Part shown: one piece after another, positions 4,499 to 48,413 of the stretch
Position numbering within the stretch: position 1 is the stretch's first letter
Layout: each line of letters opens with the position of its first letter
Origin: a phage
Strand: one strand, 5' to 3'
Length of the DNA stretch: 50,255 nucleotides
Sequence record: PV636259.1
Notes under the pieces: model-generated
The model's input: the letters and a program-made list of their open reading frames with translations, nothing else
What the model was told of the DNA's origin: nothing
Databases searched by the model: none
Translations under genes and position numbers: made by a program

Positions 4499-4519
4499 GT
4501 TTTAACAAAAAGTGCTATT
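4499..4519 (-). promoter_or_regulatory. Operator/promoter motif copy (minus orientation; GAATAGCACTTTTTGTTAAAAC) overlapping the stop of 4502..5206
   Basis: Full-consensus motif read as reverse complement; followed by CATAAT and the conserved leader. Confidence 0.55.
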
Positions 4520-5206
4520 CGCGATTGCTTTGAAAAATCCCCTTGGCGACAGAGATCGTATCAGTTTTGTTTTGGCAGACTTGCCGCCTAGCTTGCTGTG
4601 CTGTGCAGAGTACCCGTCAGGCAGTCTTACAGGTTTTCTTTCAGGCATGACAAAATCGTCAGAGGTCCACAGACAAGTTTTCTTCGGGTAAGCATCGCGC
4701 GGCGCAATATACATCGGGAACCAGGGGTGTGCGTCATTCTCTGGAAGATAGCCACCATACTCCCAGGGATTGAAGGAGTGATTTGGTTTTCTCCACGCAG
4801 AAGACAGGACGCTTACCGGATTCTCAATGATGTAAGTCACGCCCAGGCTATCGCCAATGTTCGCAGCAATCCGGGCGGTGGCAACAGCCTTCTCCTGGAA
4901 TAACGGATCGCGCTCACGCTTTCTGGCGAAGTGAGCAGCACCACTAACAGCCAGGTCAGTGCACGGCGGGAAGGCCATAATGAAATCAGGCTTGCCATAC
5001 ACGCCAGCGATAGCATCACGCTCGAACGCTGCGTCAATGAACACGTTCACATACTCAATGTTCGGATGCTCCACTCTGGCATTGTACTTTGCGTAATCTC
5101 CGTGATCGGCTCCGTCAAAGTTGAAGCACATCACCTTATGACCTTGCTTTGCCAGTTCATGACCAGCAAGCCCGGAACCGTCGAATAGTGACCAAATTAA
5201 TTTCAT
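4502..5206 (-). CDS. Short SAM-methyltransferase-like protein resembling the catalytic core of DNA cytosine-5 methyltransferases (234 aa)
   Basis: Order and spacing of FDGSG (motif I-like), FPPC (motif IV-like, Pro-Cys) and IENPV (motif VI-like ENV) match C5-MTase architecture; no target-recognition domain or motifs IX/X evident. First gene of the leftward early operon. Confidence 0.5.
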   Translation of the reverse strand: MKLIWSLFDGSGLAGHELAKQGHKVMCFNFDGADHGDYAKYNARVEHPNIEYVNVFIDAAFERDAIAGVYGKPDFIMAFPPCTDLAVSGAAHFARKRERDPLFQEKAVATARIAANIGDSLGVTYIIENPVSVLSSAWRKPNHSFNPWEYGGYLPENDAHPWFPMYIAPRDAYPKKTCLWTSDDFVMPERKPVRLPDGYSAQHSKLGGKSAKTKLIRSLSPRGFFKAIANSTFC

Positions 5207-11126: not shown

Positions 11127-11162
11127 CGGGGAATCGGCTCTGAACGGTTCCCCTTTCTTTTG
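11127..11162 (+). terminator. Rho-independent terminator (GGGGAA...TTCCCC + T-run)
   Basis: Hairpin followed by TTTCTTTTGG directly after the 10482..11120 stop. Confidence 0.6.
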
Positions 11163-11991: not shown

Positions 11992-12010
11992 TAGCACTAA
12001 TTGCTAAAAC
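11992..12010 (+). promoter_or_regulatory. Operator/promoter motif copy (TAGCACTAATTGCTAAAAC); hairpin AAGGGCA...TGCCCTT encloses GGTAGAAT
   Basis: Read directly; abuts the TAA stop of 11545..11991. Confidence 0.6.
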
Positions 12011-12073
12011 TTGCTCAAGGGCATTTGGTAGAATGCCCTTCGTTGAGTTAAGCAACCAATCAGAGGAATCACT

Positions 12074-12277
12074 ATGAAAACTATTACCGGAATGAGCAAC
12101 GAAACGAGAACGCAGATCGTTAACATGCTAATCGGCATGGCTGACGATATTCAGAATAGCCAGGTCGTTATTGATTCATGCAATCAGACTCGTGAGAGTA
12201 AATTTGAATCATCCGGCTACAAAATTGTTGAAGAAGAATTAACCATCAAAATCATTCGCGTACAGGAGAAAGCATAA
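12074..12277 (+). CDS. Hypothetical protein (67 aa)
   Basis: Track ORF; preceded by ACCAATCAGAGGAATCACT initiation element. Confidence 0.5.
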   Translation: MKTITGMSNETRTQIVNMLIGMADDIQNSQVVIDSCNQTRESKFESSGYKIVEEELTIKIIRVQEKA

Positions 12278-12810
12278 TGGATAAAATTACAATTTGGGGT
12301 CAAACTATCAACCTGTTTCTCGGTCCGCGCCGCGTCGCAATCTTTGACTTTGACGGAACACTGAGTGACGGATCAAAGCGCCTTCACCTGTTGCCAACAA
12401 AGGATTTGCACTTAACTGAAAGCTGGTCTGAGTTTAACCGAGCGGCAATATTTGATAACCCAATCCAGAGCACGATTGAGGTTATGAACTCTATGTTTGC
12501 TGCCGGGTATCACGTAATAGTTTTAACCGGGCGAAGTGATGAGGTTCGTTACGCATCTGAGTTATGGCTTAAGCATCACGGTGCGAGATATGATTACTTA
12601 GTCATGCGACCGCACACAGACAACAGGAAAGACACGGTGATGAAAGAAGAAGCGGTGCGAGCGATCGGTATTGAAAACATCCTGGCAGCTTGGGATGACT
12701 CACCGCAAATTATTCCATTATTCCGGTCGCTTGGAATAACAACATATGCGGTAGTTGACTATGGCGATAACATTCACGATCATTTAAAATCGCACGGGGT
12801 AGAGAAATGA
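12277..12810 (+). CDS. HAD-superfamily phosphatase (177 aa)
   Basis: HAD motif I FDFDGTL, motif II VLTGR, and a C-terminal WDDSPQ acidic motif; ATG overlaps the upstream stop (TAATG). Either polynucleotide 3'-phosphatase-like or nucleotide phosphatase; cannot distinguish without a search. Confidence 0.6.
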   Translation: MDKITIWGQTINLFLGPRRVAIFDFDGTLSDGSKRLHLLPTKDLHLTESWSEFNRAAIFDNPIQSTIEVMNSMFAAGYHVIVLTGRSDEVRYASELWLKHHGARYDYLVMRPHTDNRKDTVMKEEAVRAIGIENILAAWDDSPQIIPLFRSLGITTYAVVDYGDNIHDHLKSHGVEK

Positions 12811-12918
12811 ACCTATACGAATTTATTGCAGCACATCCGGTATTGACGGTTATCATCCTGCTAATCATAAATCACACTATCATCAATATGGCAAAATTAT
12901 TTTTAGGGAGATACTGAT

Positions 12919-13491
12919 ATGAAAACAGCTATCATTTTAAACGGCGCTCCTGGAGCAGGCAAGGACACTATCGGATGCATCCTGGCTGACACTTACGATC
13001 ATGTAGCTTTGCGCAGCTTCAAAGCACCAATGTTTGAGATTGCTCGGGCAATCCTGGGTGAGGCTAACTACGAGTATTTCATGTTCTTGTATGAGGATCG
13101 TCGTTACAAAGAAGAGCCAGCGTCAATCCTGAACGGTAAAAGCCCGCGCCAGTTTATGATCTGGATTAGCGAGGAAGTAATCAAGCCGCAGTTCGGAAAT
13201 CGCTTCTTCGGTATGCGAGCGGAAAGCAAGGTCAAAGAGTCATATTCTCTGTCAGTATTTACTGATGGTGGATTCAAAGATGAGGTATTGCAGATGATTG
13301 AAGGTGATATCCAGGTCAAGCTATGCCGAATCCACCGCAAGGGCGGCAACTTTGACAACGACAGTCGTGATTATATTTACCTGGAAGATATGATCGGGGT
13401 TAATGGTTATCAGGAGTGTGATTTCTTCTCTGTCGAAGGTCATCCAGAAATTACCGCTCAGCACATAGCCGCTACGTTCATCAACAAATAG
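12919..13491 (+). CDS. P-loop kinase (190 aa): polynucleotide-kinase-like or dNMP-kinase-like
   Basis: N-terminal Walker A LNGAPGAGKDT. GAPGAGK resembles polynucleotide kinase P-loops and SGKDT resembles phage dNMP kinases; adjacent to the HAD phosphatase. Confidence 0.55.
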   Translation: MKTAIILNGAPGAGKDTIGCILADTYDHVALRSFKAPMFEIARAILGEANYEYFMFLYEDRRYKEEPASILNGKSPRQFMIWISEEVIKPQFGNRFFGMRAESKVKESYSLSVFTDGGFKDEVLQMIEGDIQVKLCRIHRKGGNFDNDSRDYIYLEDMIGVNGYQECDFFSVEGHPEITAQHIAATFINK

Positions 13492-13507
13492 CACGAATTG
13501 CTAAAAC
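13489..13507 (+). promoter_or_regulatory. Operator/promoter motif copy (TAGCACGAATTGCTAAAAC) + TGATATAGT extended -10 + CTCATCGACAAC leader
   Basis: Read directly; TAG stop of the kinase gene embedded. Confidence 0.6.
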
Positions 13508-13563
13508 GTCGGTGGGGTGATTTGATATAGTTACCTCATCGACAACAAAGAGAGAAAATCGAA

Positions 13564-13773
13564 ATGATGTTATATGCTGGCAAGTTGTTTAAATGCAATA
13601 AAACTTCTGAAGTATTCGAACTTATTGAAACTGATGATGGTGACTTCATGCATGACGGTTGCGACGTTTTTATCGAGGTGAAAGAAAGCGACTATGACGA
13701 CGGAGTTTATTATAACCCGGCAGTGAATACTCAGTTTTTTACACCGATCGAAGATGATGGAGAAGAGGCATGA
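13564..13773 (+). CDS. Hypothetical acidic protein (69 aa)
   Basis: Track ORF. Confidence 0.5.
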   Translation: MMLYAGKLFKCNKTSEVFELIETDDGDFMHDGCDVFIEVKESDYDDGVYYNPAVNTQFFTPIEDDGEEA

Positions 13774-15276: not shown

Positions 15277-15300
15277 AACCCGCTTCGGCGGGTTTTTTTA
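15277..15300 (+). terminator. Rho-independent terminator (AACCCGCTTCGGCGGGTT + T7) closing the rightward early operon
   Basis: GC hairpin with GCTTCGGC tetraloop-like centre followed by TTTTTTT. Confidence 0.7.
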
Positions 15301-45463: not shown

Positions 45464-46177
45464 ATGAAAGACTTTAATGATATCGAAACCATAGACTTTG
45501 CAGATACTGGGTGCTCATTCACTCGTGAAGCAATAGCATCAGGCGGTTATTATCAGGCACTGAAAACGCCGACCTGCAAAGAGATTTCAGGTCGTAGATA
45601 CAAGGGAACCAATACACCTGACGCCGTTCGTGATTTATGGTCAACTCCACGCGAGGTTATTGCATACCTTGAAGGGCGTTATGGGAAATATGATCTCGAC
45701 GCTGCTGCAAGCGAGGAAAATAAAGTTTGCGATAAGTTTTATTCCCAGGAAACAAACTGCTTGAAGCGTTGGTGGGGAAAGAATAAGCACGTTTGGTTAA
45801 ATCCTCCTTATAGCCGACCTGATATATTCGTCAAGAAGGCCATTGAGCAAATGGAGCACAACAATCAGATCGATATTCTTTTACCCGCAGATAACTCTAC
45901 GGCGTGGTTTACTGAGGCGCGGCAGAACGCAGCTGAAATCATCTGGATTGAAGCGGACTTGACTGAGGATGTTGACGGAAATGAATACGCACGATCCGGT
46001 CGCCTGGCTTTCATATCCGGTGAAACTGGAAAGGCCGTAGACGGCAATAACAAAGGTTCGGTAATTTTTATTATGCGCGAACTTAAAGAAGGTGAGGTGC
46101 AACAGACTCACTACATCCCAATCACAAGCATTTGCCCTTCGGTGAAAAACAAACGAGCAAAGGTGAGGAAAGTATGA
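45464..46177 (+). CDS. dam: DNA N6-adenine methyltransferase (Dam-type), 237 aa
   Basis: WLNPPYS (NPPY catalytic motif). Confidence 0.7.
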   Translation: MKDFNDIETIDFADTGCSFTREAIASGGYYQALKTPTCKEISGRRYKGTNTPDAVRDLWSTPREVIAYLEGRYGKYDLDAAASEENKVCDKFYSQETNCLKRWWGKNKHVWLNPPYSRPDIFVKKAIEQMEHNNQIDILLPADNSTAWFTEARQNAAEIIWIEADLTEDVDGNEYARSGRLAFISGETGKAVDGNNKGSVIFIMRELKEGEVQQTHYIPITSICPSVKNKRAKVRKV

Positions 46178-47261: not shown

Positions 47262-48413
47262 ATGTCACAAGCTAAAATCACTACCGAGCAACTTATCGAA
47301 GAGCGCATGAGCGGCCTTACACTTCGCGAGATTGCGGAAAAGTACGGTATGCACATCCGCACAGTTGAAGCGCGTCACGCAAAACTTGCAAAAGAAGGCC
47401 ACTTCCACGGCAACGAGCATGTTGCTAAAAACGTTCCAGAAGGATTCATGGTAAAAGGTACATCTACTATGATTCGCGGTGATGGGACGGAAGTTGTTCG
47501 ATGGGTTAAGACCGATCAGGACCGTGAGAAGATTGCGGCAATGATGGAAGCGGCGCGTATTGCATTCTGTGAAGACCTGCCGCGAGCAAAGCCAACTGAG
47601 CTACTAACCTCACAAGGTCTTACAACAGCGATTGGTAAGCTGGCACTCTATCCGGTATTCGATCTTCATATCGGTGCGCTTGCTCATAAGCATGAATGCG
47701 GAGAGAACTATTCCACCGACGTAGCGGAAAAAGTGCTTAGCGACTTCTTTAATTACGCGATCGATATTGCTCCGAACGCAGAGAAGGCAGTTCTTTTAAT
47801 CGGCGGTGACTTCCTTCACTCGGACGGTCTTGATGCTGTTACCCCTGCAAGTGGTCACGTTCTGGATCAGGATTCACGATATGCAAAATTGGTGCATGTA
47901 GCTATTAGATCTGTTCGTCGCGCTATCGACAAAATGCTACTGAAACACAAGGAAGTCGAAGTCCAGGTTATCGAAGGGAACCACGACCAGGCAGGGATGA
48001 TTTGGCTACGCGCTGCAATGTCGGCATATTATGAAGACGAGCCGCGAGTATTCGTTGACGTTAGTCCTATGATTCTGCATAAGACCCGCTGGGGAAATAC
48101 CTTGTTGGGATACACTCACGGTCACACGATGAAAAAGGCAGACACGCGACTTGCAGCGATGGCGGCAGACTTCCGTGCAGACTTCGGTGAAAGCAAATAC
48201 GTGTATACTCACAGCGGACACTGGCATCATCAAACAATCACAGAGCACTCGCTTGGTATTGATGAAGTGCACGGTCAGTTAGGCGCGAAAGATGCATACG
48301 CAGCACGCGGAGGGTGGCGCTCATATCGCCAGGCGGCTGTAATTGTTTACGATAAGCAGTTTGGGGAAATAGGTCGCTTCATCTATCGTCCAGAAATGAC
48401 AGGATCGCACTAA
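47262..48413 (+). CDS. Calcineurin-like metallophosphoesterase with N-terminal helix-turn-helix segment (383 aa)
   Basis: Phosphoesterase motifs DLHIG, GGDFLHSDG, EGNHD, YTHGH, THSGHWHH; N-terminal LTLREIAEKYGMHIRTVEARHAKL HTH-like segment. Confidence 0.65.
   Translation: MSQAKITTEQLIEERMSGLTLREIAEKYGMHIRTVEARHAKLAKEGHFHGNEHVAKNVPEGFMVKGTSTMIRGDGTEVVRWVKTDQDREKIAAMMEAARIAFCEDLPRAKPTELLTSQGLTTAIGKLALYPVFDLHIGALAHKHECGENYSTDVAEKVLSDFFNYAIDIAPNAEKAVLLIGGDFLHSDGLDAVTPASGHVLDQDSRYAKLVHVAIRSVRRAIDKMLLKHKEVEVQVIEGNHDQAGMIWLRAAMSAYYEDEPRVFVDVSPMILHKTRWGNTLLGYTHGHTMKKADTRLAAMAADFRADFGESKYVYTHSGHWHHQTITEHSLGIDEVHGQLGAKDAYAARGGWRSYRQAAVIVYDKQFGEIGRFIYRPEMTGSH

Follow-up and report, generated by a model that had tools for sequence, protein, structure and literature searches.

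The window analysed here is a 50,255-nucleotide stretch of phage DNA (record PV636259.1) that comprises the complete or near-complete genome of a T1-like siphovirus (Tunavirus, Drexlerviridae). On its plus strand lie two open reading frames (ORFs), one at positions 12277-12810 for a HAD phosphatase of 177 amino acids and one at 12919-13491 for a P-loop kinase of 190 amino acids. An initial annotation had placed both ORFs at these coordinates with the help of four motifs, and had proposed either a split version of the T4 polynucleotide kinase-phosphatase (Pnkp), which might counter anticodon nucleases of the host, or a deoxynucleoside monophosphate (dNMP) kinase with a nucleotide phosphatase. 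Direct reading of the sequence confirmed the two ORFs and all four motifs. Comparison of the encoded proteins with known families, and of their genes with other phage genomes, pointed to three features of the pair: (i) the phosphatase is of the PNKP type, (ii) the kinase resembles T4 gp1 and not the kinase half of Pnkp, and (iii) the two genes recur together in different phages and are found as natural fusions.

The phosphatase carries HAD motif I (DxDxT) as FDFDGTL at residues 23-29 (codons 12343-12363, plus strand), followed by VLTGR at residues 82-86 and WDDSPQ at residues 139-144. It matches the Pfam family HAD_PNKP (PF25109) over profile positions 3-141 of 143 with 62.6 bits (E 5.8e-17), where 27.6 bits is the cut-off, and PHROG 415 with E 3.7e-66. 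Its only sequence relatives in the PDB are Pnkp1 (4xrp) and T4 Pnkp, and its fold is nearest to the solved PNKP phosphatase domains. For residue mapping, the T4 pseT sequence was fetched and numbered; all 11 T4 Pnkp active-site residues that were checked have a counterpart in the window protein, namely D165 (window D24, the nucleophile), D167 (D26), T169 (T28), R176 (R35), S211 (T84), R213 (R86), R246 (R111), D254 (D119), K258 (K123), D277 (D140) and D278 (D141). Nearly all of these positions are invariant across 35 family members, D24 and D26 strictly and T28 nearly so, and the catalytic roles of Asp165, Asp167, Ser211, Lys258 and Asp278 in T4 Pnkp are documented (PMC3592404). As judged from these matches, the window phosphatase and the T4 Pnkp phosphatase domain are homologues, and the kinship suggested for this half of the pair was thus borne out. 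A classical 5'-nucleotidase identity was also considered and was rejected in favour of the HAD_PNKP and Pnkp matches; neither a HAD-type 5'-nucleotidase family nor a class B/C acid phosphatase family gave the best match.

Two elements set the window phosphatase apart: an N-terminal beta-hairpin extension of about 19 amino acids, and an insert of about 16 amino acids after Arg35 (residues ~36-52, LHLLPTKDLHLTESW) that is conserved in the subfamily and missing from the T4 and RB49-type Pnkp. No kinase domain is present in the protein, so that the GenBank name 'polynucleotide kinase' for the HAD protein is a misnomer; the T1 protein annotated under this name is 88% identical to the window phosphatase. 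The authors of the Sfin-1 genome already saw a match to the C-terminal Pnkp domain only (PMC6714547). In phage phiL, the phosphatase gene (L001 4312-4719) is annotated at 135 amino acids only and its open frame continues upstream, as if the start had been called wrongly or a local indel were present.

Both kinds of phosphatase occur in the RB49-like Escherichia phage vB_EcoM_011D4 (Krischvirus). A T1-type stand-alone phosphatase, encoded at L098 4998-5474 and overlapping the nrdB stop codon, has the insert and scores 143 bits against the family profile; the canonical Pnkp of the same phage scores 53 bits and adjoins RnlA, about 4 kb away. Among the hits, Shigella phage JK32 shows this nrdB neighbourhood as well. 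By profile score and insert, the stand-alone phosphatases form a subfamily of their own that coexists with canonical Pnkp. Since 011D4 carries both proteins, with the stand-alone one at nrdB in a setting of deoxynucleotide synthesis, the stand-alone phosphatase ought to have a job that canonical Pnkp does not cover.

The kinase contains the Walker A sequence GAPGAGKDT at residues 9-17 (codons 12943-12969, plus strand), a G-x4-GKDT P-loop with Asp after the Lys as in T4 gp1. Searches in Pfam and NCBIfam gave sub-threshold P-loop matches only, and PDB sequence searches gave nothing beyond P-loop matches, whether the query was the single protein or the family profile; the identification therefore took PHROGs and a fold search. 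The kinase matches PHROG 139 ('dNMP kinase') over profile positions 82-260 with E 1.6e-45, and T4 gp1, whose gene 1 was fetched for comparison, matches positions 83-261 of the same profile with E 1.8e-65. The AlphaFold model of the kinase (mean predicted local distance difference test score 94.8) has the gp1 fold. Among viral models in BFVD, its closest neighbours are uncharacterised and most of the named ones after them are annotated as dNMP kinases. In the kinase search, fungal tRNA-ligase polynucleotide kinases appeared only at ranks 41 and 47, and T4 Pnkp, which is present in the library, was missing from the top 60. An hhalign comparison of the kinase family profile with T4 gp1 aligned the N-terminal 74 columns (probability 76%, E 2e-5), a span that contains the GKDT P-loop and an LNGKSP motif common to the kinase family and T4 gp1.

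The residues of T4 gp1 that contact ligands in 1DEK/1DEL are listed in PMC10653934 (Table 2). Its ATP/phosphate ligands G13, K14, D15 and T16 correspond to G14, K15, D16 and T17 of the window kinase, and M135 to M80. Of the dNMP phosphate ligands K37, R68, R132 and R177, R68 and R132 are aligned with R61 and R77 and the other two are unmatched; the base-contacting D175 and E181 fall on D116 and E122. The C-terminal part of the alignment is weak. Residues invariant in the subfamily include K35, R61, R77, S84-E85, K89, D116-G-G-F119, E122 and D148-S-R150. The Walker A of the family is GKD, not GK[ST], and the position of the T4 Pnk catalytic base holds no conserved acidic residue, being E, D, Q, N or K in different members. 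The Pfam scan gave no AAA_33/Pnk match for the kinase. Taken together, the profile matches, the predicted fold and the residue pattern mark the window kinase as a divergent gp1-type nucleotide kinase, not a Pnk-type one, and the proposal that it is a Pnk-type half fell with the absence of an AAA_33 match and the presence of T4 gp1 in the same PHROG.

The pair is thus not simply a split T4 Pnkp, because a PNKP-type phosphatase is joined to a gp1-type kinase: the phosphatase half of that proposal held, the kinase half did not. The alternative, a dNMP kinase with a nucleotide phosphatase, found support for the kinase, which shares PHROG 139 with T4 gp1; the phosphatase is not a classical 5'-nucleotidase. 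Top matches to dNMP kinase and nucleotidase families, named in the initial annotation as speaking against a split Pnkp, were found for the kinase only.

The anticodon-nuclease proposal would also require an RNA ligase, and none had been noted in the genome. Among 20 window ORFs, mostly the larger non-structural ones, a PHROG scan found helicases, methyltransferases, a primase, a RecE-like exonuclease, Erf, a tail fibre, an endolysin and similar proteins, and no ligase family. The annotation of the near-identical genome Sfin-3, with 84 features, lists no ligase. Four phmmer queries, namely T4 RnlA, an Acinetobacter phage Rnl, the kinase domain of T4 Pnk and a stand-alone kinase of the Pnk type, matched none of the window ORFs of at least 40 amino acids; among the same ORFs, the motif G-x4-GK[STD] occurs only in the kinase at 12919-13491. 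The statement that the genome lacks an RNA ligase was upheld by all three approaches; neither the window nor the Sfin-3 annotation showed a DNA ligase, a Pnk-type kinase or a second Walker A kinase. As a side observation, DNA methyltransferases are encoded twice, at 4502-5206 on the minus strand and at 45464-46177 on the plus strand, by genes that belong to separate PHROG families (PHROGs 757 and 111); the second also weakly matches a 'PAPS reductase' PHROG.

A T4-style repair of tRNAs cut by PrrC/RloC anticodon nucleases draws on the homology of the phosphatase to T4 Pnkp, whose phosphatase domain heals the 2',3'-cyclic phosphate ends of tRNA (PMC3592404). Against it count the lack of an RNA ligase or Rnl-like ORF in the window and in annotated Sfin-3, a kinase that is not Pnk-like, and phage 011D4, which retains the canonical Pnkp and RnlA alongside a T1-type phosphatase at nrdB and so implies different jobs for the two. 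Furthermore, phages that do have an RNA ligase pair it with a Pnk-type kinase or a full Pnkp, not with a gp1-like kinase, which weakened the proposed role against anticodon nucleases. In an Acinetobacter phage, for instance, the neighbour of the RNA ligase is a Pnk-type kinase (AAA_33), and the gp1-like kinase lies 3 kb away. We consider tRNA repair very improbable.

One locus had seemed to place a stand-alone phosphatase beside an RNA ligase, in an Acinetobacter Saclayvirus. This assignment was rejected: the gene encodes the Pnk-type kinase half (AAA_33; PHROG 505, positions 3-110). The corrected locus, having the kinase half and not the HAD, therefore argues against a split-Pnkp reading. In Acinetobacter phage vB_AbaM_B09_Aci01-1, the product of L094 7904-8317 is named 'putative 3'-phosphatase, 5'-polynucleotide kinase' and is the Pnk-type kinase half (AAA_33) only, next to an RNA ligase; its misnaming mirrors that of the T1-like proteins, with the kinase half affected in one and the phosphatase half in the other. 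Another odd name concerns T4 itself, in which RefSeq calls the product of gene 57B (L003 1953-2411) an 'RNA ligase', strange for a protein of 152 amino acids; gene 1 (dNMP kinase) is followed closely by 57A and then by gene 57B.

The linkage of the two genes was examined in 82 loci with kinase homologues, 80 from IMG/VR and 2 from GenBank phages. The HAD gene lies upstream of the kinase gene on the same strand in 76 of the 82, always in the order HAD to kinase, and the gap between the two in linked loci ranges from 0 to ~2 kb, with inserted genes. In Drexlerviridae-type contigs, the pair occupies two genome positions: upstream of terS/terL in 47 loci, as in the window, and between a PHROG 704 protein and the endolysin/lysis region in 24 loci. 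Since two different positions are occupied, the pair appears to move as a unit; two genome positions are likewise noted in PMC13164509. Outside the Drexlerviridae, abutting HAD and kinase genes in the same order were found in Kagunavirus XY1, in the Autographiviridae (Melnykvirinae) phages LAh5 and GP-4, and in the Yersinia myovirus vB_YenM_25.

The kinase profile, run against 1.84 billion cluster representatives, also revealed two proteins, of 403 and 461 amino acids, in which an N-terminal HAD_PNKP domain, a linker and a C-terminal kinase are fused. A follow-up search added a third cluster of fusions, which shares 74% identity with the first. The fusion clusters P0218, P0350 and P0238 are metagenomic, and their linkers of 60-110 amino acids have a GPE[LI]HG motif in common; P0238 and P0218 are only 37% identical and yet have linker motifs in common. 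Three contigs carry P0218, including a phage-like one of 60.7 kb. A fusion gene lies at L095 6001-7212. Because there are three clusters that diverge down to 37% identity with a shared linker, and three contigs, a sequencing artefact is an unlikely source of the fusions. Ser or Pro stands in P0218 and P0350 at the positions aligned to window K118 and D119 (T4 D254). In other organisms, close HAD_PNKP relatives are fused to Pnk-type AAA_33 kinases (P0361, P0365).

In the window, the two genes are separated by an ORF for a hydrophobic protein of 36 amino acids (MNLYEFIAAHPVLTVIILLIINHTIINMAKLFLGRY; 12807-12917, plus strand), which overlaps the stop codon of the HAD gene (ATGA) and stops 1 nt short of the kinase ATG. 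It is a hypothetical protein in the AV106 and Sfin-3 annotations and had no family match in the Pfam and PHROG scans. Upstream in the same operon lies an ORF of 67 amino acids (12074-12277, plus strand; PHROG 29229), whose stop overlaps the HAD start (TAATG). The four ORFs of 12074-13491, each overlapping its neighbour or within 1 nt of it, form one plus-strand operon, and AGGAG-like ribosome-binding sites precede both the HAD and the kinase genes. A consensus scan placed plus-strand terminator-like sites at 11128-11153 and 15277-15294, flanking the block that holds the pair, and found none on this strand between 11153 and 15065. To judge from this layout, the tight packing of the HAD and kinase genes of the window would allow translational coupling. 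At the DNA level, bases 12000-13700 share 91-97% identity with Shigella phages phiL, Shfl1 and Sfin-1 to -6 and with Escherichia phage AV106. The 67-amino-acid ORF is found in the phiL/Shfl1-type relatives and is missing from the AV106/Sfin group, which accounts for the gap of ~202 nt in alignments reported as 88% covered; it is probably a variable accessory gene outside the function of the pair.

The adjacency could also reflect nothing but inherited early-operon synteny of two genes with unrelated functions. Most of the 76 linked loci are on related contigs of Drexlerviridae type, the gap reaches ~2 kb with genes inserted, many kinase homologues have no phosphatase nearby, and the same type of phosphatase is found without the kinase at nrdB. 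Three divergent fusion proteins are hard to reconcile with this explanation; moreover, four or more phage groups keep the gene order (Drexlerviridae, Kagunavirus, Melnykvirinae and the Yersinia myovirus), the pair relocates as a unit in Drexlerviridae-type genomes, and its packing in the window would allow translational coupling. Mere synteny thus seems to us quite improbable, and the relocation, recurrence and fusions cited argue for the HAD phosphatase and the gp1-type kinase as a functionally coupled cassette.

The kinase family profile matched 5049 cluster representatives at E<=1e-3 in the library of 1.84 billion proteins. These matches, like those of the phosphatase to HAD_PNKP and PHROG 415 and of the kinase to PHROG 139, are well outside what chance would give. 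Orthologous kinases of the close relatives are 96-99.5% identical and often appear as 'hypothetical protein' in GenBank. A scan of 185,579 bacterial and archaeal genomes found a single kinase locus, on a contig of a metagenome-assembled genome with no phosphatase nearby, so the family is essentially restricted to phages. An additional domain in the longer kinase homologues was considered and discarded: 8 of 10 long proteins had no recognisable second domain in a first Pfam scan, the HAD fusions being P0218 and P0238, and the N-terminally extended homologues scanned next gave weak P-loop matches only. Some variants of the family have other N-terminal or upstream partners, namely a DUF7768 / nucleoside-2-deoxyribosyltransferase-like ORF in Vibrio phage AS51 (L087 3673-4008), an unrecognised extension of ~100 amino acids in EcP-vB (L090 3689-4582) and a Cys-rich N-terminus in P0266.

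Kinase homologues without an adjacent HAD retain every invariant residue of the linked kinases. The homologue lies beside thymidylate synthase and ribonucleotide reductase in the rV5-like phage ECP32, beside dUTPase and DNA ligase in the Chaseviridae phage Bp10, and beside the nucleoside-2-deoxyribosyltransferase-like ORF in AS51, settings that point to nucleotide or DNA-precursor metabolism and away from RNA repair.

These neighbourhoods also bear on a possible counter-defence role, in which the pair would restore deoxynucleoside triphosphate (dNTP) pools or destroy signalling or toxic phosphorylated nucleotides of host immunity. Only context speaks for it: the early region is rich in small unknown ORFs, and the kinase family is all but confined to phages, with its one locus in the 185,579 genomes. 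Homology offers no support, in searches that did not include the PADLOC library, and the literature searched offers none either; the neighbours in other phages belong to DNA metabolism and are not among the known anti-defence genes. Papers searched for experiments on T1-type proteins or for an anticodon-nuclease link yielded genome descriptions only; a paper on retron Eco2 reports that the retron does not defend against Drexlerviridae, but the reasons given have nothing to do with Pnk. Counter-defence appears to us a far-fetched explanation.

A third protein of interest is encoded far from the pair in the window, at 47262-48413 on the plus strand. It matches PHROG 704 ('DNA repair exonuclease') with E 2e-156, and had no match in Pfam and no PDB sequence match. 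Its translation contains an N-terminal helix-turn-helix (HTH) and the sequences DLH, GGDFLHSD, GNHD, THGH and GHWHH, corresponding to the motifs DxH, GDxxD, GNHD and GHxH; its putative metallophosphoesterase nature rests on these motifs. A metallophosphoesterase adjoins the pair or the fusion in 24 Drexlerviridae loci (Webervirus-type), in XY1, YenM_25, LAh5 and GP-4, and on the fusion contig. It is PHROG 704 in most of them and PHROG 221 in LAh5; in GP-4, the gene is annotated as a calcineurin-like phosphoesterase only. The PHROG 704 metallophosphoesterase is thus a candidate third component beside the pair.

For the function of the cassette, we propose early-gene salvage of deoxynucleotides and DNA precursors, not T4-style tRNA repair; we regard the balance of evidence on this proposal as even. 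Phages T1 and TLS have been reported to degrade host DNA and to reuse its nucleotides, by enzymes that were not identified (PMC11447400), and the authors of the KanT1 genome consider that the two genes extend the replication module and the nucleotide supply (PMC13164509). The enzyme families, the intact catalytic residues, the operon structure, the recurrent linkage and fusion, and the lack of a ligase and of a Pnk-type kinase are observed; we infer what the two enzymes act on and their connection with recycling of host DNA. In the proposed pathway, breakdown of the host chromosome would provide dNMPs, possibly with the metallophosphoesterase (PHROG 704) as an upstream nuclease. The kinase would phosphorylate 5'-dNMPs to deoxynucleoside diphosphates (dNDPs) using ATP bound at the GKDT P-loop, and host Ndk would then turn the dNDPs into dNTPs. 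The phosphatase is predicted to act via a phospho-enzyme intermediate at Asp24, with Asp26 as the acid/base, while Thr84 and Lys123 would contact the phosphate and Asp24 and Asp141 would hold Mg2+. By analogy with T4 Pnkp, whose phosphatase acts on the mononucleotide 3'-dTMP and on RNA 3'-phosphate and 2',3'-cyclic phosphate ends (PMC3592404), and whose family is described as acting on DNA 3'-phosphate ends too, its substrates would be phosphomonoesters, most plausibly 3'-phosphates, on deoxynucleotides or DNA fragments. Removal of this phosphate would render the breakdown products usable.

Several observations weigh against this proposal. We know of no established precedent for a 3'-phosphatase coupled or fused to a dNMP kinase. 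In the kinase, the gp1 ligands R11, K37, R177 and H206 are unmatched in the alignments, falling on G12, F39, G118 and R150 (K35 lies near F39, the position aligned to K37); with several ligand residues unmatched, the acceptor site appears remodelled. The alignment of its C-terminal half with gp1 is not significant alone. The papers searched describe no biochemically characterised member of this kinase or of the stand-alone phosphatase subfamily, and the label 'dNMP kinase' therefore rests on remote homology and fold. The HAD-kinase synteny is partly inherited, as most of the 76 linked loci are of Drexlerviridae type. The proposed role of the phosphatase would also depend on 3'-phosphates being left by the nuclease that degrades host DNA in T1. 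Finally, a phosphatase-kinase fusion also resembles PNKP, and HAD relatives carry Pnk-type kinases (P0361, P0365), which may indicate an end-healing role.

This last point leads to a non-canonical split PNKP, in which the phosphatase and a recruited gp1-like kinase would heal DNA or RNA ends for the host ligase, for recombination or for replication, and in which the HTH-metallophosphoesterase might take part. Such a role would suit a bona fide PNKP-type phosphatase with 11 of the 11 checked T4 active-site residues conserved, and natural fusions (P0218, P0350, P0238) that run from phosphatase to kinase; a swap of the kinase domain is conceivable, since HAD_PNKP relatives are fused to AAA_33 kinases (P0361, P0365). 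The pair also recurs beside an Mre11/SbcD-like metallophosphoesterase, endonuclease VII and exonucleases, and the acceptor site of the kinase is unlike that of T4 gp1. However, the kinase has no Pnk-type features, lacking AAA_33 and a conserved catalytic-base acid and having a GKD Walker A, whereas R61 and R77, the counterparts of phosphate-binding arginines in gp1, are conserved, which suits a nucleotide monophosphate as the acceptor. Homologues with the same invariant residues occur amid thyA, nrd and dut genes with no phosphatase nearby, no ligase was found in the genome, and RNA ligases, where present, adjoin a Pnk-type kinase or a full Pnkp. We judge this role unlikely, although it deserves consideration. 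The more novel outcomes, either a new kind of PNKP, with a dNMP-kinase fold replacing the Pnk domain and acting on DNA ends with the HTH-metallophosphoesterase, or a dedicated salvage of 3'-phosphorylated deoxynucleotides, seem to us doubtful to the point of improbable. If true, the latter would be a route described for no phage.

Under the salvage proposal, the cassette, possibly with the metallophosphoesterase, is a candidate for the downstream part of the T1 pathway for reuse of host DNA. The analysis also corrects an annotation, as the product that hundreds of Drexlerviridae records call 'polynucleotide kinase' lacks a kinase domain, and the adjacent true kinase belongs to a different family. 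The pair itself is ordinary, because its orthologues in T1, TLS, KanT1 and Sfin-1 have already been annotated and briefly discussed; in Drexlerviridae, it has been described as PNK and dNMP kinase, genes of nucleotide supply (PMC11447400, PMC13164509). Three points were not found in the papers searched: the combination of a gp1-type kinase with a PNKP-type phosphatase, their recurrent linkage and fusion, and the separate phosphatase subfamily beside canonical Pnkp. The association of a PNKP-type phosphatase with a gp1-type kinase is unexplained, and its significance is incremental within well-known enzyme families.

The pair was compared with the closest known systems. T4 Pnkp (PseT; PDB 1LTQ, 5UJ0) and bacterial Pnkp1 (4XRP) have the HAD_PNKP family and the DxDxT motif in common with the window phosphatase; in contrast to T4 Pnkp, the latter is a stand-alone protein of 177 amino acids with no fused kinase, an extra hairpin and insert, and no partner RNA ligase. 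T4 gp1 (1DEK/1DEL) shares PHROG 139, the G-x4-GKDT P-loop and LNGKSP with the window kinase, which is ~12% identical to it, is shorter (190 versus 241 amino acids) and matches no Pfam model. In mammalian PNKP, the phosphatase domain precedes the kinase domain. The gene pair and the fusions have this same order, whereas their kinase is gp1-like and there is no FHA domain. The nearest counterparts are the orthologous pairs of T1 ('polynucleotide kinase' and T1p62), TLS (Gp09 and Gp14) and KanT1 (PNK and dNMP kinase), from which the window pair has no difference of substance.

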